Assembly (NCBI GenBank): GCA_965231005.1
Contig: OZ246405.1
Span: 167,204-231,203 of the forward strand
Origin: an uncultured Gammaproteobacteria bacterium
GTDB lineage: Bacteria > Patescibacteriota > Patescibacteriia > Magasanikbacterales > UBA922
DNA length: 64,000 nt
Reading direction: 5' to 3'
Both the position numbers and the translations under genes were made by a program. Shown in pieces: positions 7,091 through 53,740 of the stretch. Position 1 is the first letter of the stretch, and each line of letters opens with the position of its first letter. The notes below the pieces were generated by a model, which saw only the letters and a list, made by a program, of their open reading frames with translations, was not told where the DNA came from and searched no databases.

Positions 7091-7759
7091 TTAGCTGTCG
7101 ACGACCGCCAGAAAGAGGTTGTCCTTACCATCAAAGGCTATCTCATCCTTGCTCTCGCAGTTGAACACTGAACTCGTGACATAGCGATCTGCCGCGTACA
7201 GCACACAGGGACTCGTCCCACCAGCACTCACCTTCCAGCCGATCGAGCCTGTCGCACGAACAATCGTGCTTGGCGAGAGGAGTCGGAATACAGGGCTGAG
7301 ATGAACACAGGCGTGCGAGAACTCCCAGATGTTCGCAGGGCGCAGACCTCGTCGGGCCAGAATCTCATGCACTTCTGCGAGGGTGAACTTTCTTTGGAGC
7401 TCACCCCTTCTCCACACCTGACCGATACCCACGATCACCATCGTAGTCCACACAGGCTCACTGCTGGTTGCCACATGTGGAGGAAGAAATGCCTCAAAAC
7501 GCTTCTTGATCTCAGGGTAGGCTCTGACACCGACGTTCCCTTCGAAGAGCCTTGCCTCGCGCATGCGCTCGACTGGGCAGACGTCCATGGGGACTTCGTC
7601 AGGCAACCCCAAGTTGTGGTTCAGACATCCACCAACCAGCATGCGCCACGGCTCATCCAGGAACAGGTTGAACACCGTTGTAGTGCCTGGACCACGCTCG
7701 TGCTCCAGCTGTGCGAGCCGTCCGAATTCTGTATACCGCTTTTTTTTCTTACCACTCAT
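7091..7759 (-). CDS. GC-rich hypothetical protein (cassette A, 222 aa)
   Basis: GC-rich third codon positions against an AT-rich background. SD is GGAGTGAAAG directly before the ATG. No domain recognised. Confidence 0.6.
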   Translation of the reverse strand: MSGKKKKRYTEFGRLAQLEHERGPGTTTVFNLFLDEPWRMLVGGCLNHNLGLPDEVPMDVCPVERMREARLFEGNVGVRAYPEIKKRFEAFLPPHVATSSEPVWTTMVIVGIGQVWRRGELQRKFTLAEVHEILARRGLRPANIWEFSHACVHLSPVFRLLSPSTIVRATGSIGWKVSAGGTSPCVLYAADRYVTSSVFNCESKDEIAFDGKDNLFLAVVDS

Positions 7760-7902: not shown

Positions 7903-7927
7903 GAAAAAACAAGCCTACACAGCTTGT
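7903..7927 (-). terminator. Terminator of the 7956-9095 gene
   Basis: Hairpin ACAAGC-ctgtgtag-GCTTGT followed by TTTTTTC on the minus strand. Confidence 0.55.
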
Positions 7928-7955
7928 TATTTGTTTCTTGTTATTTGTTAATTGC
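7923..7955. repeat. TTGTTAT/TTGTTAATTG repeat array
   Basis: Sequence GCTTGTTATTTGTTTCTTGTTATTTGTTAATTGC, a member of the dispersed TTGTTAATTG family. Confidence 0.6.
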
Positions 7956-9095
7956 TTACTGCACTGTCTTCACTATCACTTGCACATGATCTGGCACAAA
8001 CGGAACAGTTCGCACCCACACAGGTCTAAACTTCACATCAACACTATAGACATGATCGAGAGTCAACACGTGACGTCGAACTTCTTCTTTTGATTTTCCA
8101 AAGAATAATAATTTCTGTAACTGCTTACTTTCTGAATTCAATCGTTGTACGCCGTTATAAAATACTGCAAGCTCTGCTGTCCCAGCATCCAAATCATATC
8201 GTCGCAAACTGACCGTTGCAGCACCTTCACCTTCTCGCAAAATTGTTACATCGTCGATAACACGTTTCATTAATTTTTGACTTGCCAATTTTTGCACTTG
8301 CTGTGCATCGTATGCCACACCAAGTACTGTTGCGACTCCAGAAATTTCAAATTCAGAAACTTCTTTTCCTATATCACCTATTGTTTTTGTACTTTTTTCA
8401 AAAACCTCGTACACTGCTCGCTTTTCTCCAAATTTCTTTTGCAATTTTTCCTTTGCAAGCTCTTCAATTTCTGCAAGCAATTTTTTCTCAGCAGCATCAA
8501 CATCTGACTGACTAAGCACACCAACCGTTCTTACTCCACCAGTCATAGCATGTTTACTGCTTCCATAAATAAATTTTTGTTTTTCTTTTCGAAGTCCAGG
8601 AATAGTAAACCGATCGACCGCATCAATATTGCCGCTTTCCCCTTTTTTGTCAGCATACACTTCTGCCTCTACAGTACCATTTGCAGGAACCGTAGCTCGT
8701 TTCTTGAGTCGGAACAATGTTCCATCTGCTGTTTGCAATCGTGTTGTTGCAACAAGTGGTTGGGAAATATTTGATTCATTGTGCAAGATTACAATTCCAC
8801 CAGCAACACCTTCAATCTTCTTTTCTCCTGTTGGAGAAAAAGATTTTGTGAGCCGAACAGTTGAACTCGCAATCATTCCATCGACATCACCATCATTTGT
8901 CCCTATCATGACCGTTGACTCAACATCAACTGGATCTTCTTTTGTTGTAATAACAATGGTTGCTCGCTTACTCGACATGAATAAAATAATGCCAAGCAAT
9001 GCGATTGTTAAAAAAAGAAAAGATAAGGCAATCAGCTTGTAAAATCGAACTGGCTGCGCAATTGGTGGAGTTGTTGTTCTTCTACGTGGAGACAT
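7956..9095 (-). CDS. Hypothetical membrane-anchored protein co-transcribed with pilB
   Basis: N-terminal transmembrane helix. Start lies 6 nt after the pilB stop. AT-rich. Confidence 0.55.
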   Translation of the reverse strand: MSPRRRTTTPPIAQPVRFYKLIALSFLFLTIALLGIILFMSSKRATIVITTKEDPVDVESTVMIGTNDGDVDGMIASSTVRLTKSFSPTGEKKIEGVAGGIVILHNESNISQPLVATTRLQTADGTLFRLKKRATVPANGTVEAEVYADKKGESGNIDAVDRFTIPGLRKEKQKFIYGSSKHAMTGGVRTVGVLSQSDVDAAEKKLLAEIEELAKEKLQKKFGEKRAVYEVFEKSTKTIGDIGKEVSEFEISGVATVLGVAYDAQQVQKLASQKLMKRVIDDVTILREGEGAATVSLRRYDLDAGTAELAVFYNGVQRLNSESKQLQKLLFFGKSKEEVRRHVLTLDHVYSVDVKFRPVWVRTVPFVPDHVQVIVKTVQ

Positions 9096-16620: not shown

Positions 16621-16657
16621 AACAATGAATTAGCAATTAACAAATAACAATTAACAA
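16621..16657. repeat. TTGTTAATTG-type leader array immediately upstream of ftsH
   Basis: Sense strand reads TTGTTAATTGTTATTTGTTAATTGCTAATTCATTGTT then ATG. No SD. Confidence 0.6.
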
Positions 16658-16704: not shown

Positions 16705-17967
16705 TTAAGCATTTTGTGAAGTTCCTGCAACAACCTCTTCCTTTGATTCTTCCTTCTTTGGAGAATTAACAGCCACATCTTCCGATGAAGTTTCTGAACC
16801 AGAACTTGTCTCTTCTACTGGAGCCTTTACGGCATTTACGGCCTCTTCAGCTTTTTCAACTTTTTGAGCAGACTTTCCCTTCACACCATGAACTTTCAAT
16901 CCAAGACGGTGTTCAGATGGCTCAATATTAATAATTTCAAATTTGTGTGTTGAACCGATTGCAAATTTTTCACGAACTTCTTGATCTGTCATTGGGCGAT
17001 CTGCAAGTTCTGAAATGTGCGCAAGTCCATGAATTGCATCATCAAGCTTTACCATAAGACCAAAATGTTCGATCTTATGAACAATACCGTCAACAGCTTG
17101 TCCAACTTTGTATGTATCTTTCACACTCTTCCAAGGATCATCTACAAGTCGTTTTACAGAAAGATAGATCTTTGATTTATTCAAATCAATAATTTGTGCT
17201 TTGATCTTTTGACCAACTTTAAGAACATCTTTTGGATGATCAATTCGTTGCCATGCAATTTCTGAAATATGAACAAGTCCTTCAAGACCTTGACCAAATC
17301 TCATGAACGCACCAAATGATGTAAGCGCACTTACTTCACCTTCGACCATGTCTCCAATCTTATACGATTCAAGAACAGCTTTTTGGTCGTCTTCCCAAAC
17401 AGCTTTTTCTGAAACAATCAATTTTTCTTCTTGACGATTTGTATCAATAACACGCACTTGGATTGTTTTTCCAATCATGCGTTGCAAGTGTTCTAAAATT
17501 TTATTTTTGTCTCCACCAGGAACACGTGGATAATTTTCAGGACTAAGTTGTGACACAGGCATAAATCCTTTTACTGCATCTACTTGCATCATAAGTCCAC
17601 CTTTGTTTGCAGCAAGAATTTTTGCTTCAATGGTAATACCGTCTTTCATGTATTTTTCCATTGAGTCCCAAACAAGTTGGTGTCCAGCGATACGGAATGA
17701 TAATTCCATTTCACCGTTTTCATTTTCCTGCTCAACAACTGTTGCTTCTACTGTATCTCCAATTTGGACGTTTCCATATTGTGCTGATTCAGCAAACAAT
17801 TCTGGTCCACGAACAACACCAGTGGTCATACCATCGATGTCAATACGAACAGCACCATTATCAATTGAGATAACAGTTCCTTTTACAATCTCTCCTACTT
17901 TTGGAATTTTTGTAAAAAAATCCTTCAGCAAATCTGCGAAGTCTTGTGTTTTTGCGTCTTGCGACAT
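16705..17967 (-). CDS. rpsA: 30S ribosomal protein S1 with four S1 domains
   Basis: Repeated S1 OB-fold motifs. 420 aa. Confidence 0.85.
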   Translation of the reverse strand: MSQDAKTQDFADLLKDFFTKIPKVGEIVKGTVISIDNGAVRIDIDGMTTGVVRGPELFAESAQYGNVQIGDTVEATVVEQENENGEMELSFRIAGHQLVWDSMEKYMKDGITIEAKILAANKGGLMMQVDAVKGFMPVSQLSPENYPRVPGGDKNKILEHLQRMIGKTIQVRVIDTNRQEEKLIVSEKAVWEDDQKAVLESYKIGDMVEGEVSALTSFGAFMRFGQGLEGLVHISEIAWQRIDHPKDVLKVGQKIKAQIIDLNKSKIYLSVKRLVDDPWKSVKDTYKVGQAVDGIVHKIEHFGLMVKLDDAIHGLAHISELADRPMTDQEVREKFAIGSTHKFEIINIEPSEHRLGLKVHGVKGKSAQKVEKAEEAVNAVKAPVEETSSGSETSSEDVAVNSPKKEESKEEVVAGTSQNA

Positions 17968-18101: not shown

Positions 18102-18130
18102 ACTATACCATTAATATAGAAAAAATGCAA
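18102..18130 (-). promoter_or_regulatory. rpsA promoter
   Basis: TTGCAT, 17-bp spacer, TATAGT. The 9-bp array abuts the -35. Confidence 0.6.
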
Positions 18131-18178
18131 GTAAAAAGCTTCAAAGGCTTTAAATGCCGTAAATGCCATAAAGGTTAA
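18131..18178. repeat. 9-bp tandem array (RGCNTTTAN x5) upstream of the rpsA promoter
   Basis: AAAGCTTCA AAGGCTTTA AATGCCGTA AATGCCATA AAGGTTAAG. Confidence 0.7.
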
Positions 18179-18247
18179 GGACATTTTTGGCTTATCTTAG
18201 CAAAAAAATCCCAAATTTCAGAAATTTTGAAACCCTTAAAGTTTACA

Positions 18248-18292
18248 GAGCCTTTAAGGCTTTTAAAGCTTTTACAGCATTTAAGGCCTTTC
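18248..18292. repeat. 9-bp tandem array x5 upstream of the cassette B promoter
   Basis: GAGCCTTTA AGGCTTTTA AAGCTTTTA CAGCATTTA AGGCCTTTC. Confidence 0.7.
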
Positions 18293-18295
18293 CTC

Positions 18296-18324
18296 TTGAC
18301 AAAACCGATTTTTTTTGCTATAGT
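18296..18324 (+). promoter_or_regulatory. Promoter of cassette B
   Basis: TTGACA, 17-bp spacer, TATAGT. Near-identical to the cassette F3 promoter. Confidence 0.6.
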
Positions 18325-18368
18325 GAGCAGTCCAAAATGTTCTTTAAAAAGGCTCTATTTGTCAAAAG

Positions 18369-18422
18369 CAGTAAGGTCTCACAGGATGTATCTATTCAGA
18401 TGCATCGTGTGAGACCTTACTG
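18369..18422 (+). other. Perfect 15-bp stem with 24-nt loop in the 260-nt leader of cassette B
   Basis: CAGTAAGGTCTCACA and TGTGAGACCTTACTG. No T-tract follows. Confidence 0.7.
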
Positions 18423-18583
18423 TAGTTCTCCCTGGTTGCTCTTGATGAGCTGCTAGGTTGTTTTTTGACCGTACTGAAAGAAGCCAACTGCCCGAGCGGC
18501 ATACAAGATAGATCCCCACAAGAGATCTGACAGGGCGATCCTGCCCAAACCAAAGGGCAGACTGCCCGACAACGGAGTAGACC

Positions 18584-19669
18584 ATGACTACGAACAACAA
18601 CGGAAGAAACCGAAACCGCCTCCTCGTCACCGACTGGGACGAAGTCGGTCGCGACATCGAGGGCAAGTTCACCCACCGCATCAGCCTGTTCGATGACCTC
18701 GGGCCGGCTCAGCTCCCCCAGGTCAGCGAGATCATCATCCGCGCCATCGAGACGGTCGCACCTGACCCCGAGACCGCTCACAAAGCCGTGGTACGCATCC
18801 AGACCCGCGAAATCCACGAGATCTTCGTGCGCGGTGACAGCTCGCGCGATGTGAAGCCGCGCATGGTCGCACGGGGCAAAGACAAGCACAACGAGATGAA
18901 GGCGAAGCTCGACTACAAGGGCAAGCTGCTCAGCGGCAAGCACAACCGCAAGAACCGGCATCTCCGCGAGAAGCTCGACGAGCTGGTCGAGCGTGTGTCC
19001 ACTGGCGACCTCGACCTCTTCATCGACCGCATCATCGGCAACATCGCCTGGCTCATGCGCGGCGATGGCATCTGGGTCGACGGCACCAAGATGTTCGAGG
19101 GCGAAAAGTTCTTCGCGTCCCAGATCGTGCTCCACAAGGACGACCTGGACGACGAGGAGCTGGAAGAACTGGAAGCCGAAGCCGAGGCCGACCGTGACGC
19201 GGCTGCCATCCGCGATGCCGAGAAGGAAAAGGGTGAGCCGCTGACCGACGAGGAGATCGAGCACGTCAAGGCCGAGCGTCGGCGCAAGTGGGCCGAGAAG
19301 GTCGCGGCGCGCGAGGCTCGCAAGGCCGAGCGTGATGGCAAGTCCGAGTCCGACGGCGAGAGCGGCGGTGAGTCCGGCGGCAAGGGTGACCTGGCCGACG
19401 ACGACAAGCTGAAGGCTCTCGACGGCAAGCTGCCGAGCAACCCCGACGAGGCCGAGCTGGCGCGCCTGCAGAAGAAGGACAAGTGGAGCGCCGCGGACTG
19501 GCGTGCGCACGCCGAGTGGAAGCTGGGCAAGCCGTTCAGCAAGGGCACCGAGGCCCAGGCCGCTCTGCGCGAAGCCAACTGGGACAAGGCCGTGGTCCTG
19601 AAGGGTCTGCAGCACAAGCTCGCCAACCTCGCCAACGGCAACGGTGAGGGCAAGTCCGACGCCAAGTAG
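18584..19669 (+). CDS. GC-rich hypothetical protein with a long charged C-terminal tail (cassette B, 361 aa)
   Basis: ATG with SD GGAG. GC-rich third codon positions. No domain recognised. Confidence 0.6.
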   Translation: MTTNNNGRNRNRLLVTDWDEVGRDIEGKFTHRISLFDDLGPAQLPQVSEIIIRAIETVAPDPETAHKAVVRIQTREIHEIFVRGDSSRDVKPRMVARGKDKHNEMKAKLDYKGKLLSGKHNRKNRHLREKLDELVERVSTGDLDLFIDRIIGNIAWLMRGDGIWVDGTKMFEGEKFFASQIVLHKDDLDDEELEELEAEAEADRDAAAIRDAEKEKGEPLTDEEIEHVKAERRRKWAEKVAAREARKAERDGKSESDGESGGESGGKGDLADDDKLKALDGKLPSNPDEAELARLQKKDKWSAADWRAHAEWKLGKPFSKGTEAQAALREANWDKAVVLKGLQHKLANLANGNGEGKSDAK

Positions 19670-19762
19670 ATTCGCCATCTACACCTGCCTGCCCAAAGGG
19701 TCGGGGGCCGCACGTAGTGATACGTTGTGGCCCCTGCCCCTGGCGGCGGGAACATAAGGAGT

Positions 19763-19790
19763 CACCCATTCTCTGGACAAAGAATGGGTG
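19763..19790 (+). other. 10-bp stem hairpin 3' of cassette B
   Basis: CACCCATTCT-ctggacaa-AGAATGGGTG. Confidence 0.5.
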
Positions 19791-19830
19791 AAGAAACAGT
19801 TCGTACAATAACTTGTACACACTGCATCAT

Positions 19831-19857
19831 AAAAAACTTCCTAACGGAAGTTTTTTA
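19831..19857. terminator. Bidirectional terminator after cassette B
   Basis: AAAAAACTTCC-taac-GGAAGTTTTTT. Confidence 0.8.
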
Positions 19858-19906
19858 TTGTCTAATATCTATTATTTAATAGACCTCGATTAAAGAACTA
19901 TTTTTT

Positions 19907-19942
19907 TGCCTTTAGAGCCTTTACAGCATTTATGGCCTTTTT
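19907..19942. repeat. 9-bp tandem array x4 upstream of the cassette C promoter
   Basis: TTGCCTTTA GAGCCTTTA CAGCATTTA TGGCCTTTT. Confidence 0.65.
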
Positions 19943-19974
19943 AGATTGACAATACAGTCAATCTAAGGTAACGT
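19943..19974 (+). promoter_or_regulatory. Promoter of cassette C with an overlapping perfect palindrome
   Basis: AGATTGAC-aataca-GTCAATCT spans the -35 TTGACA. The -10 is TAACGT at a 17-bp spacer. Confidence 0.5.
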
Positions 19975-20017
19975 CGTTTCACACACCCCAGACCGCACAG
20001 CGGTGGAGGAACAAACA

Positions 20018-20944
20018 ATGACTGGACCTTTCAAACTTCTCTTTCTCGACTTTGATGGAACTGCAACTGATGCTGAGCGCGAAGGCACTGAGCCTGGACC
20101 GCAAAGCCCTGGTGATCTGTCGTTTGTAGACGGATATCTCAAGGATATTGGGGTCATCTGTGACATTCCCTTGGCGCAAATGCAAAAGAGAAATGCAGCG
20201 CTTGTAGCCGAGATGCTTGCTGATCCAAGACGGCATTGTCTTGTCATTGATGGACAGAAGGTTGCACCAAGTTGTGTTGACCCCTTCCTCAGGACTGGTA
20301 TGGTTGTGAGACTGATTTTGGAAGAATCTGGTCTCATGTCCGAGACACCCGAAACAAGGGCAGCCCGAGACCGCATGATCACCAGTGTGATCTACCCATG
20401 GAACTACAGAGCAAGATCATCGATCTGCTTCCGTGCTGGAGCAAATGCGCTCTTTGCAGCGCTGCGCAACTCCAACATTCACATCATCAGCAACTCACAT
20501 ACAGACGGTGTGAATGGCAAGCTCGACCGTTTGAAGGATGGTCGATGGATCCTCAACGGAGATCAGGGCATTCCTCGTGTCCATGGTGATGCCAAGAAGT
20601 TCATCAACGACCCAAACTGGGAAGGCTCTGACCACATCGGCTGGCATCCGCCAACTGGACTGGAACTCCCAGGTCTTGATCGTGAAGTGCTGCTCCGACG
20701 ACGACTCTACTTCGCCAAGATGGATGCCATTCGCCGTCACTACGGACTCGAATGGGGACAGATCATGGTCGCAGGCGATATCTTCGAACTGGACCTGGCA
20801 GTGCCGTTGACACTGGGCTGCACTGTGGTGCTCATGGCCAACGAATTCACTCCGGGATACGAAATCGACTTCCTCCAGAGCCACCCCAATGGGCATGTGA
20901 TCGACAAGGTCATGGACATCGCAGATCTGTTCCTTGTCCCATAG
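20018..20944 (+). CDS. GC-rich HAD-superfamily hydrolase (cassette C)
   Basis: Motif I FLDFDGT, motif II ISNSHTD, motif IV VAGDIFELD. SD is GGAGGA. Confidence 0.7.
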   Translation: MTGPFKLLFLDFDGTATDAEREGTEPGPQSPGDLSFVDGYLKDIGVICDIPLAQMQKRNAALVAEMLADPRRHCLVIDGQKVAPSCVDPFLRTGMVVRLILEESGLMSETPETRAARDRMITSVIYPWNYRARSSICFRAGANALFAALRNSNIHIISNSHTDGVNGKLDRLKDGRWILNGDQGIPRVHGDAKKFINDPNWEGSDHIGWHPPTGLELPGLDREVLLRRRLYFAKMDAIRRHYGLEWGQIMVAGDIFELDLAVPLTLGCTVVLMANEFTPGYEIDFLQSHPNGHVIDKVMDIADLFLVP

Positions 20945-20966
20945 GAGCGGACATTCAACCCAAATT

Positions 20967-21013
20967 CCGAACTTACTCTTGTATACTGCTGAACGAGCAT
21001 GGAGTAAGTTCGG
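20967..21013 (+). other. Perfect 12-bp stem with 23-nt loop 3' of cassette C
   Basis: CCGAACTTACTC and GAGTAAGTTCGG. Confidence 0.65.
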
Positions 21014-21025
21014 CAGTATCAAAAG

Positions 21026-21050
21026 AATATCTCAAAAGAGATATTTTTTT
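21026..21050 (+). terminator. Terminator after cassette C
   Basis: ATATCTC-aaaa-GAGATAT followed by TTTTTTT. Confidence 0.75.
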
Positions 21051-21057
21051 GTTTTTT

Positions 21058-21100
21058 CCTTTAAAGCCTTTATAGCATTTAAGGCATTTATAGCCTTTTT
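21058..21100. repeat. 9-bp tandem array x5 upstream of the promoter of the MBL-fold gene
   Basis: TTTCCTTTA AAGCCTTTA TAGCATTTA AGGCATTTA TAGCCTTTT. Confidence 0.65.
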
Positions 21101-21107
21101 AAAAGCC

Positions 21108-21136
21108 TTGCAAATACTACAGAAATACGATATACT
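21108..21136 (+). promoter_or_regulatory. Promoter of the MBL-fold gene
   Basis: TTGCAA, 17-bp spacer, TATACT. Confidence 0.55.
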
Positions 21137-21171
21137 TGTTCTGTATTTTTATCATATATATAGTCTAAATT

Positions 21172-21786
21172 ATGCACATCTCTTGGCTTGGAAATACTGG
21201 TGTTAAACTGCAAGTAAAACCGTTTGACAAAGACATTACTGTTGTTATTGACCCATATAAACAGAAAAAAGGCTCATCTCCACGAAGTCTCTCTCCTGAC
21301 ATTGCACTATTCACACGTGGAAAAAAAGAAAGCATTACTCTTTCAGGAAATCCATTCACTCTTTCTTCCCCTGGAGAATGTGAAACAAAAGGTGTGCTTG
21401 TGACAGCTGTCCAAGGAAAGGAAAAGGACAATGTCCTCCTTCGTGTAGATGCAGAACATATGAGCCTGGGTCACTTAGGTTGCACAAATAAACAACCAAC
21501 TGACAAACAATTAGAAGTATTGTCTGGAGTTGATATCCTTTGTATCCCAGTTGGAAATGGTGTTTGTTACGATGCAGAGCAGGCAACAAAAGCAATCAAT
21601 ACAATTGAGCCACGGATTGTCATTCCTATTGCATTTAAAAGTGACAATGACCCACAAGCAAAACCTGTTGACTCATTTTTGAAAGAAATTGGAATAAAAG
21701 CAGACAAACCAGAAAAGAAAATAATTATTAAAAAGAAAGATTTACCTCAGGAAGACATGCAAGTAGTGGTATTAGCAAAAGACTAA
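21172..21786 (+). CDS. MBL-fold metal-dependent hydrolase (UPF0173-like)
   Basis: HLGHLG motif. AT-rich host composition. Confidence 0.6.
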   Translation: MHISWLGNTGVKLQVKPFDKDITVVIDPYKQKKGSSPRSLSPDIALFTRGKKESITLSGNPFTLSSPGECETKGVLVTAVQGKEKDNVLLRVDAEHMSLGHLGCTNKQPTDKQLEVLSGVDILCIPVGNGVCYDAEQATKAINTIEPRIVIPIAFKSDNDPQAKPVDSFLKEIGIKADKPEKKIIIKKKDLPQEDMQVVVLAKD

Positions 21787-22362: not shown

Positions 22363-22562
22363 CAAACTTGTATAGGGATATTCTTTAAGAGAAGAGTGGA
22401 ATCAATAGTTATTAGCTATTAGTTACTAGTTATTAGCAAACTAGGCTTAGATCTTTCTTAAATATTGTCTATTAACTATTAGCTAGTAACTAATTCCTTT
22501 CTTGCAAAGCCATCCTATACTAAGTTGTTAATTGCTAATTGTTAGTTGTTAATTGTTATTAA
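22355..22562. repeat. MITE-like structured intergenic element, copy A
   Basis: Bounded by GCAATTAACAAAC and the inverted TTGTTAATTG array. Carries the internal 12-bp inverted repeat ATTAGTTACTAG/CTAGTAACTAAT. Homologous to copy B at 40612-40836. Confidence 0.6.
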
Positions 22563-25204: not shown

Positions 25205-26464
25205 TCAGGCTACCTTGAAAACTGGTCTTGCTCTTACATCGTTTCGGTCAACTTTCAAGCAACCGAGGGCTTTACGTGCCTCTGCTGGGCTGATGAACTC
25301 GCGTAGCATGAGTCTGTAGATGTAGTTTACGCAAAGGATGTGCATGATGAAGTTGTACCCAACACGCTCCCCTGTGTAATACCGGTACTGATCGTGCCTT
25401 GAGATTTGTTCGTACAGCTGATCTCGAATGTACTGGATGTCATGTCCTTCTGCACGCAACTGTGCTTCTTGTCCTCTGTGGAACGTAAGCACATACAACA
25501 GCATGGGAGTCAGTTCGGGATGGAGTTGTGTTCCAATCCACCACGGACCTGCACTGAGCACCTCTACCATGTACTGATGTATTTCGTGCTTTCGCTTTGT
25601 TCTACCCACCCGGGCAAACCGACGATGACTCACAGCAAGTACTGAAGACCTCAGACTGGGATGATCTGGATCAAGATACATCGAATGCACTTCAAGCGCA
25701 AACGTATTATGTGTCATCCGAAGAACTGGGTGGCTCCGCTTCGTTCGAACGACTTGCAGTCGTTGTCTCCCGTAAATCATAAGGCGCTCGCCAGGAGAAA
25801 CTGGAAAAAAACGCCTGCTGGTCGCACCGGTTGATTCGACAAGTAAAGAAGCTTGTTCTGGAGCAATCAAATATTCTGGCATTACGCCGAAAAGCGCGTG
25901 TGCCATCATTTGGCATCCAAAACAAATGTTGAATCCTGGAATGCCAATCTCGTGACAAAACTGCATCAGTCTGATGGAATCTTGAATGACCGACGTGTCT
26001 TTGACCTGATCAAGCATCTTTGGTGAGCCACTGAAAATAATCCCAGCAGGTCGTGAATGCTCAACCATGATCTGGTGGCACAGGTCTGAAATGTGTGACT
26101 CGGCATGGACAATAAGCAGTTCGAGTGGTTTGGCACCACGTGCACTGAACGCACCAGAGTTGTTTGCCCAGCTCAGCCAACGACCGATCTTGTCAGTGTC
26201 TTTAAACCAACCATCATCAACACCACGCAGCAGCATCTTTCTGAGATCTTGACGGCCAACGCCTGTGTTGATGAAGAGATCAGTCCACTTATTCCCGTTC
26301 GCACTGTCCAACGTTTCTTGGATCATCTTGTGGTAGATGTGTTCCTGACCTGGACGCATGTCCACGTACACGACAGTGTTGCCCTTGATTCTGTCGCCTT
26401 TGCGGTAGATATAGGTTGGGCAAGGACGAGGCGTCCTGCCCGCAAATCTGCGGCTCATAGTCAC
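25205..26464 (-). CDS. GC-rich class I glutamine amidotransferase-like protein with extra N- and C-terminal regions (cassette D)
   Basis: GATase1 nucleophile elbow NICFGCQMMAHAL and HPE in IGTQLHPELT. SD is GGAGGTGA. Confidence 0.55.
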   Translation of the reverse strand: MTMSRRFAGRTPRPCPTYIYRKGDRIKGNTVVYVDMRPGQEHIYHKMIQETLDSANGNKWTDLFINTGVGRQDLRKMLLRGVDDGWFKDTDKIGRWLSWANNSGAFSARGAKPLELLIVHAESHISDLCHQIMVEHSRPAGIIFSGSPKMLDQVKDTSVIQDSIRLMQFCHEIGIPGFNICFGCQMMAHALFGVMPEYLIAPEQASLLVESTGATSRRFFPVSPGERLMIYGRQRLQVVRTKRSHPVLRMTHNTFALEVHSMYLDPDHPSLRSSVLAVSHRRFARVGRTKRKHEIHQYMVEVLSAGPWWIGTQLHPELTPMLLYVLTFHRGQEAQLRAEGHDIQYIRDQLYEQISRHDQYRYYTGERVGYNFIMHILCVNYIYRLMLREFISPAEARKALGCLKVDRNDVRARPVFKVA

Positions 26465-32481: not shown

Positions 32482-32488
32482 AAATAAA

Positions 32489-32644
32489 AAACAATTAACA
32501 ATTAACAATTAACAATCCACCTAGGACTTGATAATCGTTAATTGCTGTTTGGTAATCGTTACCTATCGTATGTTTTTTTTGCTTAGTTGTCAAGTTTTTT
32601 TGATTCAAAAAATTTGTTAATTGTTTTTTGTTAATTGCTAATTG
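32489..32644. repeat. MITE-like element copy C, with inverted TTGTTAATTG arrays bounding about 100 bp
   Basis: Left arm is (AACAATT)x4 and right arm is TTTGTTAATTGTTTTTTGTTAATTGCTAATTG. It has an internal 9-bp direct repeat TAATCGTTA. The right arm abuts the island E terminator module. Confidence 0.55.
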
Positions 32645-33721: not shown

Positions 33722-34720
33722 CTACTTCCCCCCGAGCAGATGAAACAGCCAGGGCAGGAACCGTTGCAAATACACACGCTTGACCTTGCCGATCTTGGTG
33801 TGAAGACCGATCTGTGGTGCGTCTGCGCAGTAGCACGAAGCTTCGCTCTGAGCAGCCAGGTATGCAGCAGCTGCAGGACCTTGGAAGAACGCATCGAGAA
33901 GCAGGAACAAGGTCTTCTTGCACGTGCCCACGTTCTTGATGATCACAGTCAGATCGACTTCTTCATCAGACCATGCATCCTCATCGACAGGAAGCGCGAT
34001 CGGAACGTAGTGCAGCCCTGCATCACGTGAGAGCTTTGCCTCTGGAGCTGTGGTCATGCCGATGATGCCGATGTAACCGACAAGCTCGAGCAGCTTCTGA
34101 TGAAGGAGCGACTCCAACCTGGTCGAGAACTGCGGACCTTCCATGCAGACATAGCCAACAGGCAGGTCACCAGTGTAGAACAGGTCCTCGTACCCATCGA
34201 GTTGCTTGGCAGTCTCGAGAAGTGCAGCAGAGAGTGCATTGCAGAATGGATCTGCAAACTTCACATGAACAGCACACTCGCCCTCGTCGTAAAAGGTCGT
34301 CTTGCGTTTCGTGGTTTTGTCCCACAGTTGATGCGGCAAAACCGGCTTGCCCGGCTCGATGTCTCCGCTCAGTGAGCCCACGGTTGTTGGCGCGAGCACA
34401 TTCATCGTCAGCATGCGAAGTGCAAAGATGTTCGCCCGATTCGGGATCACAGTCGGAATCGTCTTGTGATAGTTGTCATGGCGCTCGATCACTGCGACAA
34501 TGATTTTTGAGCCTCGCCACGTACCAACGGAGATGTCAGAAGATGGCTTGCCAAACGGAGTGTCCGGATCGTTTAGAACAGTGACGTCCTCGAGCACCTC
34601 TGTGACATCGATGCCCGTTGGACAAAAAAGCGCAAAGTCTGCAGGCAGCAGTTCTTGCAGCTTGGGCCAGGGGAAAAACGTACCTTCGATCGTTGCTCCA
34701 CCGATAGATCTGAAAATCAT
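33722..34720 (-). CDS. GC-rich 5'-methylthioadenosine / purine nucleoside phosphorylase family protein (MTAP-like; island E, gene 4)
   Basis: DTPFGKPS, ANIFAL, PFC, LLETAKQL, CMEGPQFSTRLES, GMTTAPE and VDEDAW align with MTAP. Confidence 0.8.
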   Translation of the reverse strand: MIFRSIGGATIEGTFFPWPKLQELLPADFALFCPTGIDVTEVLEDVTVLNDPDTPFGKPSSDISVGTWRGSKIIVAVIERHDNYHKTIPTVIPNRANIFALRMLTMNVLAPTTVGSLSGDIEPGKPVLPHQLWDKTTKRKTTFYDEGECAVHVKFADPFCNALSAALLETAKQLDGYEDLFYTGDLPVGYVCMEGPQFSTRLESLLHQKLLELVGYIGIIGMTTAPEAKLSRDAGLHYVPIALPVDEDAWSDEEVDLTVIIKNVGTCKKTLFLLLDAFFQGPAAAAYLAAQSEASCYCADAPQIGLHTKIGKVKRVYLQRFLPWLFHLLGGK

Positions 34721-34802
34721 GTTGCCCTCCCAGCAGCATTTGCTGCAAATGAGCGTTCAAGTTCTTTAGACACAAAAAAAGCGTCCTAAACGACTGTAGC
34801 CG

Positions 34803-34831
34803 AGATTTAGATAAATGTCAACATTATTGAA
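34803..34831 (-). promoter_or_regulatory. Promoter for the MTAP-like gene
   Basis: TTGACA, 17-bp spacer, TACAGT. SD is GGGAGGG. Confidence 0.5.
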
Positions 34832-34838
34832 AAAGAAA

Positions 34839-34882
34839 AAGCCCCGTGCATAAACGCCGTGGCTCTTCCTCCTTGATTCTGT
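34839..34882 (-). terminator. Repeated 44-bp terminator module, copy 2
   Basis: GAAAAAGAAAAAGCCCCGTGCATAAACGCCGTGGCTCTTCCTCC. Confidence 0.5.
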
Positions 34883-34887
34883 AATTG

Positions 34888-36666
34888 TTATGCTGCAATG
34901 AGATCTGCTACTGTGACTGGCTTTGGCTCGCCAGGAGCAAGCAGCTTATGCCACTTACGCTCTATAGCTTCAGTCCAAGAAAAAATAAGCGGACACCCTT
35001 CTTCACTCGAGGCTCTAACTCCGATGACTAGACCGTCCTGCCTCATCCGAGAAAGAAACAGATCCAGTGCCAGTCTGGTCGGGAATTCTTTGGTCGGTCC
35101 GACAAACTCCTCTTCGAAATCACTTGCGAGAAAGTCTTTTCCTTCTGACCAGATGAAAATGAGCATCCTGCGGAACTCAACAAGTTCCTTGGGGTTCAGC
35201 TTGATGCAATGACTTATAACGTGTCGGACTTGGTGCTGCGGAAAATGCGGAAGACCTGGCAGCTTTTCTGCGAGCTTTGCTGTCCATGAGTAGGACTTAA
35301 CTTTTCTTTCGTTTTGTCTCACGTCTACTGACGTAAGGAATCCATACTCACAAGCCATATCAATGGATCTCTCCAGACTGACCACGGTTTTGAATTCCTT
35401 ATCCTCTCCAACCAAGTAGTCTTTGACATCACCTAGTGTGAACGGAAGTCCACACGAGCAGATGTACATAAGCCGGAGACGGGTAAGCCATGAATCGTAA
35501 TAGACTGTGTACTCAGGCAAAAGCCAGTTCGCAAGTTTTTGAACAAGTCTAGACTTTGTTTCGCCTTGCGAGCGAAAACTATCAAGCACATGTCCGTACA
35601 TCTTACGAGCTTTCTTCGTCCAATAGTAACGAAATGTACTGGAGTAGTTTTGTGCTTTCTTCGTTGTGACCATCCCACGTCTCTTCAGGAGATTGGTGAA
35701 ATTCTTGAGCTGGCTAAAGGTTCGGAACATCTTGTCCGGACCGACAACACAGTTAGCAATACCACGACGGAGAAATGGATTCCCGTACGAAGCCAAAAAG
35801 AGAAAGAGTCCTCGTCGGTACACCTGAGCTTCTGGCCCACCATGTACCAAATCTGAGTAAACATCGTCTCTGAGGCTTGCAGTGAGAATATCCCACGTCT
35901 CTCTTGAACTGAGCAGTGCTGCAAATGTTTCTAAGAGCTTGTTCTTTCCTGCTTCGGTCCAATCATATGTGGCCCTGGTCGAACTTTGAACAACTTCAAG
36001 CGAGCCATCGTAGACCATAAAATCAAGAAGCTCTCGGACAGGATGAGGGCCAATGAATTCGTCCCTGGTGCCAAAGAAAAATGTCTTGATTTCGTGACCG
36101 AAAAACCGGAGACCGAGCGTTCGAAGGAACACCACTGCTTGCTTCTGCTCAAGAGAAAGAGCGTTGAATGCATCTTCTCGAGCAGCTCTGTTTGCAAGTT
36201 CTGTTCTTCTTTGATTTCGCTCCCGCCTCTCACGAAGCCTTTCTCGGGCGAGAAATCGCTGACGAGCCCTTTCTTGTTCCTTCAGTTCAGCACGTGTAAG
36301 TCGACGCCTTTCTGGACGGCTTGATCTTGTCCGAACCTGACGTATACGCTTGCGCACCACCTTTGCTGGCTCAGGCTTTGACTGAGCGACAAAGTCAGCA
36401 TATCGCTGGAATTCACCTTCTTCCCAACTAGGAACCACGCGAGTGAAAGAGAAGAAGAACTCACGTCCTTTGTTCCGCGTCCCAATCCTACTCGCAAGCA
36501 TCTTCCCAGTTCCAGAATTTCTCAGTAAATGGGTTACAACATCGTCTTCGCACTCAAACGGACATCCGTCATCTTTGACGTGCGCGACCACAAACGACAG
36601 AGGAAATTCTTTCATCCCTCTGGTCAGCAGCCACACCCAGTGCAAATATGTAATTTGCCTTTGCAT
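34888..36666 (-). CDS. GC-rich hypothetical 592-aa protein with an Arg-rich coiled segment (island E, gene 3)
   Basis: Start at MQRQITYLH with SD GGAGGTG. No domain recognised. Confidence 0.55.
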   Translation of the reverse strand: MQRQITYLHWVWLLTRGMKEFPLSFVVAHVKDDGCPFECEDDVVTHLLRNSGTGKMLASRIGTRNKGREFFFSFTRVVPSWEEGEFQRYADFVAQSKPEPAKVVRKRIRQVRTRSSRPERRRLTRAELKEQERARQRFLARERLRERRERNQRRTELANRAAREDAFNALSLEQKQAVVFLRTLGLRFFGHEIKTFFFGTRDEFIGPHPVRELLDFMVYDGSLEVVQSSTRATYDWTEAGKNKLLETFAALLSSRETWDILTASLRDDVYSDLVHGGPEAQVYRRGLFLFLASYGNPFLRRGIANCVVGPDKMFRTFSQLKNFTNLLKRRGMVTTKKAQNYSSTFRYYWTKKARKMYGHVLDSFRSQGETKSRLVQKLANWLLPEYTVYYDSWLTRLRLMYICSCGLPFTLGDVKDYLVGEDKEFKTVVSLERSIDMACEYGFLTSVDVRQNERKVKSYSWTAKLAEKLPGLPHFPQHQVRHVISHCIKLNPKELVEFRRMLIFIWSEGKDFLASDFEEEFVGPTKEFPTRLALDLFLSRMRQDGLVIGVRASSEEGCPLIFSWTEAIERKWHKLLAPGEPKPVTVADLIAA

Positions 36667-36712
36667 GATCCACCTCCAATAGGATGGTTGGTTAATGTAG
36701 AGAGCAAGATAA

Positions 36713-36741
36713 AAATTACCAGAAAAATTGATAGTGGTCAA
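36713..36741 (-). promoter_or_regulatory. Candidate internal promoter for gene 3
   Basis: TTGACC, 17-bp spacer, TAATTT. Preceded by the hairpin CTCCCCCGAC/GTCGGAGGAG at 36769-36790. Confidence 0.35.
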
Positions 36742-36841
36742 CCTTTGATACTCTCACAAAGTTGAAACTCCCCCGACGATGTCGGAGGAGTGTCTTGTTG
36801 ACCAACCGCCGTCAAATGACAGAGATTGATACTTGAATTTT

Positions 36842-37300
36842 TCAGCTTGAATTAATTGGCTGATTTACCAACCAATCATAATGACCGCGACTGATGCGAA
36901 CGAACATCGGATTGTTTGAACGAGTTCGCCAACTGGCGTAAGCGATAGCACTTCTTCTTGTCTTGAATGGACAGTCTGGACTATCAATCAGGTGTTGAAG
37001 ACATGTATCTTTTATGGAAAATGGGCGGCCGCATGTCACATTCCAAAACCATTGGTCAGCTTCAGTCATTCCATCTGGCTCGGATCTGTTGAGCCAGTGA
37101 TAGAAGTTACCACCACGGATTTCGAGCAGTCTCATCCATTTGAGATCATCAATGACCTCCAGGACGATCCGCACTGACGGAAACTGCGTTCCTTTTCCAA
37201 CCTTCTCAACAACGTGCGCCGAGTGGAATCGAATTGGAAACGTTTCGCGTAGCCATTTCTGAATTTCAAGCTTTCTTGGAGTAATTGTTCTGTGTTCCAT
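36842..37300 (-). CDS. GC-rich hypothetical 152-aa protein with a possible Cys/His metal site (island E, gene 2)
   Basis: Start at MEHRTITPRK with SD AAGGGGGTG. The C/H spacing (CGRPF..CLQHLIDSPDC) hints at a metal site. Confidence 0.5.
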   Translation of the reverse strand: MEHRTITPRKLEIQKWLRETFPIRFHSAHVVEKVGKGTQFPSVRIVLEVIDDLKWMRLLEIRGGNFYHWLNRSEPDGMTEADQWFWNVTCGRPFSIKDTCLQHLIDSPDCPFKTRRSAIAYASWRTRSNNPMFVRISRGHYDWLVNQPINSS

Positions 37301-37488
37301 ACCAACACCCCCTTGTTTTGTTGGTGGTTGCAACAGACGTAGAGTCAAAGAGCGATAACTGACCCTATCATGATGCATCTTTCCTGTCAATGCAAATGAA
37401 AAAGCGCCTAGCGGTCTGTCGACCAGCTAAACGCTTTTTTTCCTTGCCCGGCTTGGAAACCGAACCCCTGTGTCTTGTGTTGTACTGA

Positions 37489-39297
37489 CTACGCTGCTTC
37501 ACTTGCATTCTGCGATTCCCGCTGCATCATGAGCTTGTCCACCCAACTACGAGGAACAACCCCAGGCACATAGCTGCCATAACGACTGTTGCGAGGTGTG
37601 TAGATGAAAACTCCTTGAACGATGAGTTCGCCCTGGACCTTTGCGTTTCTCCAGTCTTGTGAGGACATGTTAGAGCTGGTCTTTGCACGGAGAGCCTTGC
37701 AGTCTTCACTTCTGAACAGTTGTCCATCACTTGCAAGGAATATCTCCAAACCTCGATTGTAGCCCATTGGAGGGAGCCGGATGTACTCACGCGTCCAAAA
37801 GCCTTTGTACCAGACTGCGCCGTCTTCGCGGACTGTACCATCCGTTAGCTCAGTTGATGTAGCAGCTCGCTGTTCATAAAGTTCGTCGACCCACGAACGC
37901 AAAACCACTCCCGGTGTGTAGATTCCTCCACGTTTCCCTTCTTTCGAAGCGTATGAGTATGCTGCATCGAGCACACCACCCTGCTGTACAGCACTACGCC
38001 ACTGAGGGTAACTCATGGGAGGACTGATGACCTTGAGAAATTCCTTGATTGCCGATGACGGAAATGGTTGTCCGTCACTTTTGAGGAACATCTTCCTGAC
38101 TCGATCTTGAGCAAATGGACGAAGACCTGGAATCTCATCCATCACCCAAAAACCCCTGTACAGAACTGCACCATCTTCGCGGGCTGTACCGTCCTTCAGT
38201 TCAGTTGATGCTTTCTCGTCAGGCTTGTCTTCGGCCTGTTCTGGTTCTGCACCTTCTTCTTCGCTCGATTCATCATCAGCTTCGCTAGTTGCTGGCTCAG
38301 AATCTTCTGCTGCTGGTTCGTCCTCGACCTCTTCAGTCTCATCTGGATCTGCAGCTTCAGGTTCGATGGGTTCATCCGCATCTTGGATTTCAGGCTGAGA
38401 ATCTTCAGCTTGCGCCTGCTCAGTTTGATCTGCGGAATCAGCATCCGAATGAACCGGACCCTCACCCCAACCTGGTGGCGGACTTCCTTCCTGCCCGATC
38501 GGTGCAGCAAAAACCTTTGCAGCTCGTGCTGCAGCGGCAGCTTCTCGTGCTCTGACTTCTGCCTGAGCTTTCTCAGCAAGCGCAGCCCAGTTTCTGGAAC
38601 GGACAGACCAATCAACAGATCCAACCACCTCTACCATCCCATCTTCTCGGAACGTTGGCCTTGACCGGGGAAGAGTTGAAAGAGGCCATGAAGGAGCTGC
38701 TGGCTTTGCAGCTTGCTCACCCTCAACAGGCGTTTCGTCGTCAGCGTTTTGCTCTGGATGCAGCAGTGCAATGTTCAACTTCCAGCGACCTCTGCCAGCA
38801 TCGAGCAGCAGTTGGCATGCCACCAAATCAGAGAAAACAACATCACTTCCCTTCAGCCACTCAATGAGCCTGAAACGAGCAAAAACAGCACTGTTTGGAT
38901 CCTTGCCACCCTCGATCAGCTTGATTTCAATGAGCCGAGCTGCCTCAAAGTCAGCTTCCTCAGGATCTCGAAAAACGATTTTCTTCTTGATCGGTGGCGC
39001 TTTTTTACGACGCTTTGAAGATTTCGACTCCCCACCAGAAGGACGTTGAGAAAGGCAAGCACGCCCAGAATCTGTAAAGTACAGATGACCACTAGTGAGA
39101 CGCTTCAGGAACCCATGCCTGGTAGCATCTGAGATGAATGCAGCGAGATCGTCTTTTGCAATCCGCCCACTTACACGGAGAGCTTCTGGGAGAAGTCGCG
39201 CTCCATGCAATGTTTTGCTCATCCGTCCTAGTACTGTTGCCACCTCAGCAGCAACTGTTTTTTGACTCTTGACCATAGCCTTCTTTTTGCGAGCCAT
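37489..39297 (-). CDS. GC-rich 602-aa protein with a basic N-terminal region, a roughly 90-aa acidic low-complexity linker and two tandem roughly 110-aa C-terminal repeats (island E, gene 1)
   Basis: SD is GAGGAGGTCATC then ATG. The two repeat units begin ELKDGTAREDGAVLYRGFW and ELTDGTVREDGAVWYKGFW. Confidence 0.6.
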   Translation of the reverse strand: MARKKKAMVKSQKTVAAEVATVLGRMSKTLHGARLLPEALRVSGRIAKDDLAAFISDATRHGFLKRLTSGHLYFTDSGRACLSQRPSGGESKSSKRRKKAPPIKKKIVFRDPEEADFEAARLIEIKLIEGGKDPNSAVFARFRLIEWLKGSDVVFSDLVACQLLLDAGRGRWKLNIALLHPEQNADDETPVEGEQAAKPAAPSWPLSTLPRSRPTFREDGMVEVVGSVDWSVRSRNWAALAEKAQAEVRAREAAAAARAAKVFAAPIGQEGSPPPGWGEGPVHSDADSADQTEQAQAEDSQPEIQDADEPIEPEAADPDETEEVEDEPAAEDSEPATSEADDESSEEEGAEPEQAEDKPDEKASTELKDGTAREDGAVLYRGFWVMDEIPGLRPFAQDRVRKMFLKSDGQPFPSSAIKEFLKVISPPMSYPQWRSAVQQGGVLDAAYSYASKEGKRGGIYTPGVVLRSWVDELYEQRAATSTELTDGTVREDGAVWYKGFWTREYIRLPPMGYNRGLEIFLASDGQLFRSEDCKALRAKTSSNMSSQDWRNAKVQGELIVQGVFIYTPRNSRYGSYVPGVVPRSWVDKLMMQRESQNASEAA

Positions 39298-40611: not shown

Positions 40612-40836
40612 GCAATTAACAACTAACAATTAGCAATTAACAAGAATTTAGTATAGAATAACTTTCTTAGAAAAAAAGATTATTTATCAGCTAATAGTTA
40701 ATAGTTATTAGACAACTTGGCTTCTGCCTTTCTTATGTGGTCTATTAACTAGTAACTAATAGCTATTAATTCCGTACTCGTTATAAAGAATTTTTTCTAC
40801 TAAGCTTGTTAATTGTTTTTTGTTAATTGTTAATTG
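40612..40836. repeat. MITE-like structured intergenic element, copy B
   Basis: 33-bp terminal inverted repeats GCAATTAACAACTAACAATTAGCAATTAACAAG and CTTGTTAATTGTTTTTTGTTAATTGTTAATTG. The core is homologous to copy A. Confidence 0.65.
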
Positions 40837-46995: not shown

Positions 46996-47028
46996 AGCAA
47001 TTAACAAATATCAATATAAATCAAGACC

Positions 47029-53023: not shown

Positions 53024-53097
53024 GGTGGCTATGGTGTAGTGGTAACACAGAGGCTTGTGGTGCCTTTATCACGGGTTCGATCCCCGTTAGCCACCCC
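53024..53097 (+). tRNA. tRNA-His (anticodon GTG) with an encoded G-1
   Basis: Hand-folded. G-1 pairs with discriminator C. Acceptor GTGGCTA/TAGCCAC. Anticodon loop TTGTGGT. T-arm ACGGG-TTCGATC-CCCGT. Confidence 0.8.
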
Positions 53098-53116
53098 TTT
53101 GGGGGTTTTTTATTTG
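53089..53116 (+). repeat. tRNA-His 3' end plus terminator, repeat copy i
   Basis: AGCCACCCCTTTGGGGGTTTTTTATTTG. An identical 28-mer recurs at 54081-54108 and a diverged copy at 53569-53606. Confidence 0.8.
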
Positions 53117-53120
53117 GATC

Positions 53121-53149
53121 AAAAAAACACCAGAGTTGGTGTTCTTTTG
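53121..53149. repeat. Cassette-boundary hairpin module 1
   Basis: AAAAAAACACCA-gagt-TGGTGTTCTTTTG. Confidence 0.75.
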
Positions 53150-53182
53150 TTATAGGAAAAGCCGTATAGGTCTAGTCATGAT

Positions 53183-53500
53183 CTACCCCCCTGCCTCAAA
53201 TATCGTTGCCAGATCTTCAATTTCCTCTCTTGTCCATCCATCATAATATTCGCTCCAAAAAGGATGTTCTTTATCCTCAAGCATCGCTCTATAGTCGTAG
53301 GACAGACTCTTAAACGAGACTGGGGATGGGTTTTCAGACTCCAGCACACTACGCTCTTTCTCAAATTCACGCTGGAATATTTTCATCACCCTGTCTGTAG
53401 GTGCCAACTGCTTGGCTTTTTCACTGACCCTGTTTAGTATCTCCTCACCCATCTCCTTTACATACGCAATTTCCCTATATGGGCTCAATTCACTATCCAT
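53183..53500 (-). CDS. Hypothetical 105-aa acidic protein (cassette F6)
   Basis: ORF between boundary modules. Its promoter TTGTTC, 16-bp spacer, TATAAT lies at 53528-53555. Confidence 0.5.
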   Translation of the reverse strand: MDSELSPYREIAYVKEMGEEILNRVSEKAKQLAPTDRVMKIFQREFEKERSVLESENPSPVSFKSLSYDYRAMLEDKEHPFWSEYYDGWTREEIEDLATIFEAGG

Positions 53501-53568
53501 ATGAAAATATTAATAATAATCTCCCTCATTATAGCACCAATCAGAGAATGAACAAAGTTCTAATACCG

Positions 53569-53606: not shown

Positions 53607-53653
53607 CTAATTTTCTTGTTTTTGTTGAGGGAAATATCTTGGCTCTAACCAAA

Positions 53654-53683: not shown

Positions 53684-53740
53684 TGCTCGCGGTTTTTTGG
53701 GAAACCGCGAAAACCTTTGGCCTTTCCTCTCACGTAAGGA

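Follow-up and report, generated by a model that had tools for sequence, protein, structure and literature searches.

Ribbon-helix-helix tandem operators (MetJ metboxes, omega heptads and ParR iterons) consist of 2-10 copies of a 7-11 bp unit that are bound cooperatively, one unit per protein module, and such operator arrays regulate no more than a few operons, in most cases their own. Repetitive extragenic palindromes and bacterial interspersed mosaic elements (REP/BIME) are abundant extragenic palindromes, which are transcribed and often lie as inverted pairs within an operon or at 3' ends. The consensus of the upstream promoter (UP) element is an A+T-rich sequence of A-tracts and T-tracts. 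The element occupies about -40 to -60, next to the -35 of sigma-70 promoters, characterizes the strongest of them (those of stable RNA and ribosomal protein genes) and stimulates transcription when the alpha C-terminal domain binds it. Direct repeats of the heptamer TAACTGA occur in marine Beggiatoaceae, Cyanobacteria and Bacteroidetes (MacGregor 2015, PMC4679880). These repeats are short, oriented and intergenic, come in 2-6 copies, have a patchy phyletic spread, and their function is putative (PMC4679880). Most of them aim at a start codon and end a few nucleotides upstream of it, at genes without a ribosome-binding site that include ribosomal protein genes, and a minority aim at stop codons (PMC4679880). 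Here we describe tandem arrays of a 9-bp unit in a 64,000-nucleotide stretch of contig OZ246405.1 (assembly GCA_965231005.1), which we call the window. The arrays belong to a lineage-specific family of polar cis-elements, 42-45 bp long and built of five 9-bp modules, that occurs in Candidatus Magasanikbacteria and other Patescibacteria. No description of these arrays was found in the literature searched, and the family, with its directional five-unit repeats at gene edges, is apparently undescribed.

Six arrays of 9-bp units in the window

Reading of the sequence and a phase scan revealed six arrays of head-to-tail 9-mers with the core GCNTTT, each of 4-5 units, and Tandem Repeats Finder (TRF) reported a period of 9 at every one of them. 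A three-unit pattern with at most one mismatch matched the window 18 times, compared with 0.06 times in dinucleotide shuffles, and none of 100 shuffles reached 18. The initial annotation had listed six such arrays, and all six were confirmed by sequence reading, TRF and the shuffle control, so that the arrays exist and are non-random. Their unit variant is GCHTTTANR, with A at position 7, whereas relatives carry GCHTTTYAR.

The array at 18131-18175 on the minus strand has five units (ACCTTTATG GCATTTACG GCATTTAAA GCCTTTGAA GCTTTTTAC), the last of which touches the -35 of rpsA. The rpsA promoter (18102-18130, minus strand), which the array directly adjoins, reads TTGCAT (18130-18125), a 17-bp spacer and TGgTATAGT (18107-18102), an extended -10. 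Across a 74-bp gap lies the divergent partner of this array, also of five units (18250-18294, plus strand), and 1 nt further the promoter TTGACA-17-TATAGT (18296-18324, plus strand; 11/12) of a GC-rich open reading frame (ORF) at 18584-19669. The four-unit array at 19908-19943 (plus strand) comes after the hairpin and T-run terminator (19832-19856) of the upstream ORF, and its 3'-terminal 21 bases match those of the 18250 array at 20 of 21. It is followed after 2 nt by a promoter-like site, TTGACA-17-TAACGT (19946-19974, plus strand), before a GC-rich ORF at 20018-20944; this site, with its perfect -35 and weak -10, was under the threshold of the promoter tool and was read by eye. The array at 21057-21101 (plus strand) has five units, the first of them beginning TCCTTT, and a terminator (21020-21051) stands immediately before it. 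The promoter TTGCAA-17-TATACT (21108-21136, plus strand; 9/12) of a metallo-beta-lactamase (MBL)-fold gene at 21172-21786 begins 6 nt after this array. A sigma-70-type -35 thus follows four of the six arrays at 0-9 bp (rpsA, two GC-rich ORFs and the MBL gene), and these four span -38 to -85 of their promoters.

The remaining two arrays are placed otherwise. The five-unit array at 57349-57393 (plus strand) lies at the edge of a GC-rich island, 31 nt from a minus-strand terminator/promoter module, with no promoter within 55 nt and no ORF downstream. The four-unit array at 63909-63944 (plus strand) has a bidirectional terminator (63862-63887) on one side and, on the other, what looks like the stop codon of a convergent gene, which continues past the end of the window. 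The earlier claim that each array stands just before a -35 therefore holds for four arrays and fails for these two. A further array-like stretch of three perfect and two imperfect units (16823-16864, plus strand) runs antisense in the coding tail of rpsA, within its variable Lys/Glu-rich C-terminal tail and directed into the gene, and it could represent an array that the gene absorbed or a chance product of the coding sequence.

A five-unit family in Patescibacteria

We scanned 185,579 species genomes with a four-unit pattern and the metagenomes of the Joint Genome Institute (JGI) with a five-unit pattern. Positions 7 and 8 of the unit were free in both patterns and R at position 9 was fixed in the metagenome scan only; H at position 3 was preset by both the metagenome pattern and the array filter and is therefore not an independent finding. 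The majority of the matches listed were homogeneous coding or microsatellite repeats, and heterogeneous arrays in AT-rich contigs formed a separate class. This class comprised at least 67 further arrays in at least 37 AT-rich Patescibacteria loci. All family counts below (67 arrays, 37 loci) are filtered counts among the matches listed in both scans, with the six arrays of the window excluded. Named genomes with arrays were, among the matches listed, Candidatus Magasanikbacteria or 'Patescibacteria group', and one bin was labelled Gammaproteobacteria. The window itself is part of a Candidatus Magasanikbacteria genome; its S1 protein shares 71-75% identity with S1 sequences assigned by name to Candidatus Magasanikbacteria.

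The copy number is fixed. Exactly five units were present in 56 of the 67 arrays and six in one, and no sixth unit was visible in the columns flanking the listed related arrays. The consensus unit is GCHTTTYAR, with Y-A-R conserved at positions 7-9 even though neither pattern constrained positions 7 and 8, and the five-unit form can be written (GCCTTTCAA)5. The outer units prefer GCC, and the fourth spacer has A as its last base. Units within one array differ from each other, and arrays of different loci agree at only 48% of the variable positions. Orthologous genes keep arrays with differing variable positions, as seen in two copies each of Era, HtpX and a ClpB-like gene (labels judged from N-terminal sequences, with one Era copy confirmed by Pfam).

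The same features bear on the idea that the arrays are neutral or selfish repeats, produced by slippage or of a REP type or the type of miniature inverted-repeat transposable elements (MITE), and tolerated nowhere but in the very small gaps between the genes of a streamlined genome. The patchy phyletic distribution, with arrays absent at orthologous sites, is consistent with this idea, as are the whole intergenic gaps filled by arrays and the 7-mers, an 11-mer and a 14-mer that occupy the same niches. Slippage, however, predicts variable length, whereas the unit number is fixed at five; the units differ within an array, the copies are not near-identical and the consensus is kept at orthologous genes despite sequence turnover. 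The strict polarity toward genes, described below, also argues against neutral repeats, which we consider quite improbable. A phage or mobile origin was rejected as well, with no such array in 2.9 million IMG/VR viral contigs and no target-site duplications noticed.

Arrays point at gene boundaries

Of 73 arrays, the listed and the window arrays combined, 48 have a coding-sequence boundary at the 3' end of their T-rich strand and 7 have one at its 5' end. In 30 of the 67 listed arrays, the ATG of a long ORF follows the last unit after 2-13 nt (2-8 nt in 28), and Pfam showed that the ATGs at such arrays are the true N-termini of L20, L11, L9, EF-G, IF-2, RF-1, TrmD, AspRS, Era and UvrA. Single start-codon arrays have a canonical promoter upstream, the -10 of which ends 3-24 nt before the array; at locus L216 this promoter is a perfect TTGACA-17-TATAAT. 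Because canonical promoters lie upstream of them, the start-codon arrays are transcribed leaders. In 18 of the 67 arrays, the 3' end of the T-rich strand adjoins the stop codon of a convergent ORF, mostly at -2 to +5 nt. A -35 lies 3' of the array in 5 of the 67. Two of these five, both at locus L236, serve rpsL and rpmB, where 9 nt separate the array from the TTGACA promoter. None of the six 9-mer arrays of the window holds the start-codon-proximal position.

Shine-Dalgarno enrichment was absent both in 179 ORFs of the array-bearing loci and in the native genes of the window. T stands at -1 before the ATG in 132 of the 179 ORFs. Before their start codons, native window genes are AT-rich and lack GGAGG; the GC-rich ORFs of the window do have GGAGG. 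We considered an element that would act in RNA only, a leader for initiation or control of translation such as a landing pad for S1 or a cold-shock-domain protein, the promoter-upstream copies of the window being displaced or duplicated relics. The 30 arrays close to confirmed start codons with promoters just upstream, the unused Shine-Dalgarno sequence, and the published TAACTGA repeats before start codons without ribosome-binding sites all speak for such a leader. In the window, moreover, the start-codon niche is taken by 7-mer arrays (see below), and the 18250 and 19908 arrays resemble duplicates. Relics are nevertheless not expected 0-9 bp from a -35, where four of the six window arrays stand, and about one third of the family, promoter-upstream and stop-codon arrays, is outside the leader of the adjacent gene. 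The arrays are also as structured as shuffles and so are not a designed 'unstructured leader'. We regard an RNA-only element as unlikely.

Among the matches listed there were 19 divergent and no convergent array pairs, and arrays occupied entire intergenic gaps. Most pairs with a short gap (4-28 nt) separate two tandem genes: the stop codon of the first is followed by the A-rich arm, the gap, the T-rich arm and then the ATG of the second. No sigma-70 promoter above background was found within short-gap pairs or up to 120 nt upstream of them. The sole pair with start codons at both arrays has a 69-nt gap that holds divergent promoters. An A-rich and a T-rich arm might form an intercistronic or terminal stem, in RNA or DNA, for RNA processing, termination or stop-start translational coupling. 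The exclusive divergence of the pairs fits such a hairpin, as do the promoter-less short-gap pairs, with a stop codon 0-5 nt before one arm and an ATG 2-9 nt after the other, and the generic stems have energies of -24 to -59 kcal/mol. Real partner arms, however, matched no better than chimeric pairings (mean z +0.24), so that a hairpin as selected fold was rejected. About half of the arrays are single, and in the window the lone pair is 74 bp apart with divergent promoters and the remaining arrays are unpaired. We judge the paired-arm hairpin very improbable. Arrays flanking the same gene gave no signal of inverted-repeat similarity, with 3 cases only.

Two side observations concern individual loci. 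A degenerate 9-mer array in L236 (3110-3170, minus strand; GCCTAGTTG GCCTAGTAA GCCTCGTAA GCATTTTGA) adjoins the start codon of rpsL, and the canonical array upstream of the rpsL promoter is about 230 nt from it. L235 and L236 share a palindromic motif, TTTGGAAAnTCCAAA, immediately 5' of two arrays, which could be an operator.

No selected fold, dyad or coding role

The RNA folding of the arrays equals that of dinucleotide shuffles (z-scores -0.7 to +0.5). An apparent signal for an 'unstructured leader' was traced to mononucleotide shuffling, and this reading was dropped. The initial annotation had pointed out palindromic units, and such units (AAGGCCTT and AAAGCTTT) do occur. The bases before and after the GC do not covary across the 67 related arrays (chi-square p = 0.19), and therefore the palindromes follow from the consensus and not from selection. 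A dimeric DNA-binding protein had been proposed, as one option, from these units and the strict 9-bp period; a symmetric dimer is not indicated, because the units are direct repeats without dyad covariation.

Other readings were tried and rejected. The arrays do not serve as sigma-70 promoters of leaderless mRNAs, since no -10-like hexamer stands at a fixed distance from the ATG and promoters lie upstream of the arrays instead. Nor do they have a coding role, for none of the reading frames stays open consistently or is in register with the ATG that follows. Clustered regularly interspaced short palindromic repeats (CRISPR) and tandem interspersed guide RNA (TIGR) arrays do not match, because the units here are contiguous 9-mers without spacers and total at most 45 bp, whereas TIGR has 36-nt units with box C/D. 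REP/BIME and MITE-like palindromes were set aside, the arms being not specifically complementary and the copies not near-identical. A search of the window and ten related loci with Rfam at gathering thresholds returned only tRNAs and a 5S rRNA. The unit may resemble boxA, the NusB/NusE site (GCUCUUUAA), but is one pyrimidine shorter.

Arrays and promoter strength

The promoters of tRNA-Arg and tRNA-His and two perfect TTGACA-17-TATAAT promoters of the window are without an array. Since many canonical promoters of the window carry none, arrays are not a general attribute of strong promoters; neither do they mark the strongest ones, with tRNA and perfect-consensus promoters array-less and some ribosomal protein promoters equipped with arrays. 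Five loci syntenic with the rpsA region of the window (about 95 kb) contain no 9-bp arrays. They keep the order GyrA, an approximately 190-aa protein, MBL, rpsA and FtsH and the same rpsA promoter, and the extended -10 is kept in relatives without the array. The -35 of the window promoter (TTGCAT) is weaker than that of the five orthologous array-less rpsA promoters. In one array-less relative, L243, the promoter of a homologous GC-rich gene (27% identical to cassette B of the window, the ORF at 18584-19669) has three repeats of T-tract plus AGC with a period of 10-11 bp at the same place, which suggests that promoter-upstream arrays may descend from or converge on such phased T-tract elements.

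The initial annotation assigned the arrays to the position of a UP element or class I activator. This is true of the four promoter-linked arrays in the window and likewise of rpsL and rpmB in L236, but of only 5 of the 67 listed related arrays. Its suggestion of a UP element shared as a general native signal did not hold, given the five array-less syntenic relatives. The arrays could still be a classical UP element or intrinsically bent DNA, with phased T-tracts touched by the alpha C-terminal domain of RNA polymerase and no dedicated factor. Their place before the -35, seen both in the window and in L236, the L243 repeats at the corresponding promoter and the weak rpsA -35 of the window are in line with this. 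The UP consensus is not matched, however: every 9-bp unit brings an invariant GC dinucleotide, the T-tracts are only T3-T4, and repeats spaced at 9 bp do not keep in phase with the turns of the DNA helix. The array-less tRNA and perfect-consensus promoters also count against it. Moreover, the arrays are not simply promoter UP elements, because in relatives they are mostly found at start or stop codons, and the greater part of the family is located 3' of a promoter or behind a stop codon. We find a classical UP element or bent DNA improbable.

A second repeat family and the GC-rich cassettes

The window comes from a genome of 36% GC with GC-rich islands, and it carries rpsA, ftsH, gyrA and the MBL-fold gene. 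A second repeat family, (TTGTTAA)4-5, gave 27 matches in the window against 1.3 expected. Its arrays lie at 7924-7961, 22525-22562, 32614-32644 and 40806-40836 on the plus strand and at 16627-16657, 32485-32515, 40613-40643 and 46998-47014 on the minus strand. Six genes, ftsH and gyrA among them, have such an array at the start codon and two genes have one at the stop codon; divergent pairs occur in this family too. They thus sit in the niches that 9-mer arrays hold in relatives. Other heptamers (TAGTTAT/TTAACTA and TAATAGT/CTATTAA) form inverted repeats at 22406-22492 and 40692-40769, between outer arrays of the TTGTTAA type. Outer arrays and inner blocks together arrange the tandem heptamers into nested palindromes, one upstream of gyrA and another upstream of the gene at 40827.

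The slot between MBL and rpsA varies in content, with two GC-rich genes in the window (18176-21170), one different GC-rich gene each in L243 (8400-10000) and L244 (7970-10000), one ORF each in L301 (8925-10000) and the P0002 contig, and none in L300 (9624-10000). Both L243 and L244 are array-less and have other repeats: an 11-bp unit in three copies, AGCTAAAAAA, lies between divergent promoters in L243 (9840-9870), and a perfect 14-bp repeat of 3.1 copies, TTTACAAAGCATTA, lies in the rpsA leader of L244 (9865-9908). No homologue of cassette B was found beyond the L243 gene, and a word-index search gave only cassette B itself. A 54-nt imperfect palindrome (18369-18422) is situated in the long 5' leader of this cassette, 3' of its promoter.

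GC-rich ORFs occur at 7091-7759, 18584-19669, 20018-20944, 25205-26464, 33722-39297 and 53100-57300, mostly with 46-56% and in one case with 65% GC. Several have a GGAGG Shine-Dalgarno sequence, a terminator is near several, and most have no Pfam match. An AT-rich consensus promoter precedes those examined. The island at 53025-57320, beside tRNA-His, consists of repeated modules: a repeat like a tRNA 3' end at 53082, 53569 and 54074, a terminator module (AAAAAAACACCA..TGGTGTT) about five times and a promoter module three times. These repeats suggest serial cassette insertion, and one cassette codes for an RNase III-like protein (54304-55482).

Discussion

We propose, tentatively and with rather less than even confidence, that the array would be a docking platform for a lineage-specific nucleic-acid-binding factor and, in this genome, an upstream promoter element. 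A sequence-specific factor would dock on the array, one module per 9-nt unit, read the T-rich strand and act on whatever adjoins the 3' end of the array. In this genome, the target would be RNA polymerase at the -35 of four promoters, with the array as a DNA-level upstream promoter element, either activator-like or architectural. In most array-bearing relatives, it would be the small subunit of the ribosome at the start codon of housekeeping genes that lack Shine-Dalgarno sequences, with the array in the transcribed leader. A protein of the cold-shock-domain or S1-like type, reading single strands rich in T/U, would, from what is generally known of such proteins, suit both uses. Protein binding, its modularity and the raising or controlling of expression are the parts of this proposal that we infer.

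The fixed five copies, the retention of the consensus unit by unit and the strict polarity favor linear modular recognition by a trans-acting factor, and the same three features argue against a fold, slippage debris or a generic AT-rich effect. The absence of an RNA fold and of dyad covariation fits module-by-module recognition as well. A DNA-level promoter role is favored here by the last unit at 0-9 bp from the -35 of four promoters together with the weaker rpsA -35 of the window, and a leader function is favored in relatives by the tight spacing to start codons without Shine-Dalgarno sequences, downstream of promoters. Such a leader function agrees with what has been proposed for the TAACTGA repeats (PMC4679880).

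Several points weigh against the docking platform. The docking factor is hypothetical, and one factor that acts on both DNA and RNA is an added assumption. At the 18 arrays that adjoin the stop codon of a convergent gene, there is nothing obvious to load, and the promoter-less short-gap pairs between tandem genes are not predicted by docking; jointly, the stop-codon class and these operon pairs fit no model that we tried. The majority of strong promoters in the window have no array, and the array is dispensable for the rpsA promoter, because the five syntenic relatives keep the promoter without it. The 7-mer arrays at start codons in the window could hint at a generic property of repeats over a specific factor.

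A bolder version is that, in Patescibacteria without Shine-Dalgarno sequences, the arrays form the cis-acting part of a lineage-specific code for gene expression that has gone unrecognised. A five-module factor or a ribosome- or polymerase-associated protein would read (GCHUUUYAR)5 in place of Shine-Dalgarno pairing and UP elements, and the reverse complement would be a gene-end or intercistronic signal. We think this decidedly unlikely. Transcription and translation start in Candidate Phyla Radiation bacteria is essentially unstudied, and the array genomes show no Shine-Dalgarno signal. A polar 45-bp element of fixed copy number near genes of the translation machinery is a testable candidate for the missing signal or its regulator. 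The array could be used as an oligonucleotide bait for the factor, as a search pattern by which to annotate the starts of genes and the junctions within operons in metagenome-assembled genomes of these lineages, and as a part for Patescibacteria expression tools. If inert, the arrays would still be useful markers of lineages and gene boundaries.

Comparison with known repeat systems

The closest published analogue of the arrays is the TAACTGA heptamer repeat, and the closest functional ones are UP elements and tandem operator arrays; the arrays match none of them in full. REP/BIME elements are likewise extragenic and lie as inverted pairs between the genes of an operon or at 3' ends. Unlike them, the 9-mer arrays have an internal 9-bp period, arms that are not complementary, single copies at start codons and copies that are not near-identical. 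Ribbon-helix-helix operators share with the 9-mer arrays the short head-to-tail arrangement of degenerate units beside promoters. The 9-mer arrays differ from them in amounting to hundreds of predicted sites at unrelated housekeeping genes, with no cognate gene linked, and many of them lie in leaders or behind stop codons.

As with UP elements such as that of rrnB P1, the arrays adjoin the -35 at four promoters of the window and at rpsL and rpmB of a relative, are rich in T-tracts and are linked to genes of the translation machinery. They are, however, about 45 bp long instead of about 20 bp and have an invariant GC in every 9 bp; they are absent from tRNA and most strong promoters, and the majority of the family is not promoter-upstream. 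The TAACTGA repeat is an exact heptamer, whereas the array unit is a degenerate 9-mer (GCHTTTYAR or GCHTTTANR), and its copy number is 2-6 compared with five. Divergent pairs are frequent among the 9-mer arrays, one quarter of them are at stop codons, and some, among them every promoter-linked array of the window, precede the -35 and are not in the leader. In orientation and in position at start codons, 30 of the 67 related 9-mer arrays and the 7-mer arrays of the window behave like the TAACTGA repeats. The arrays belong with a known but uncharacterised kind of repeat, short, oriented and tandem, that lies at the edges of genes in bacteria with little Shine-Dalgarno use.

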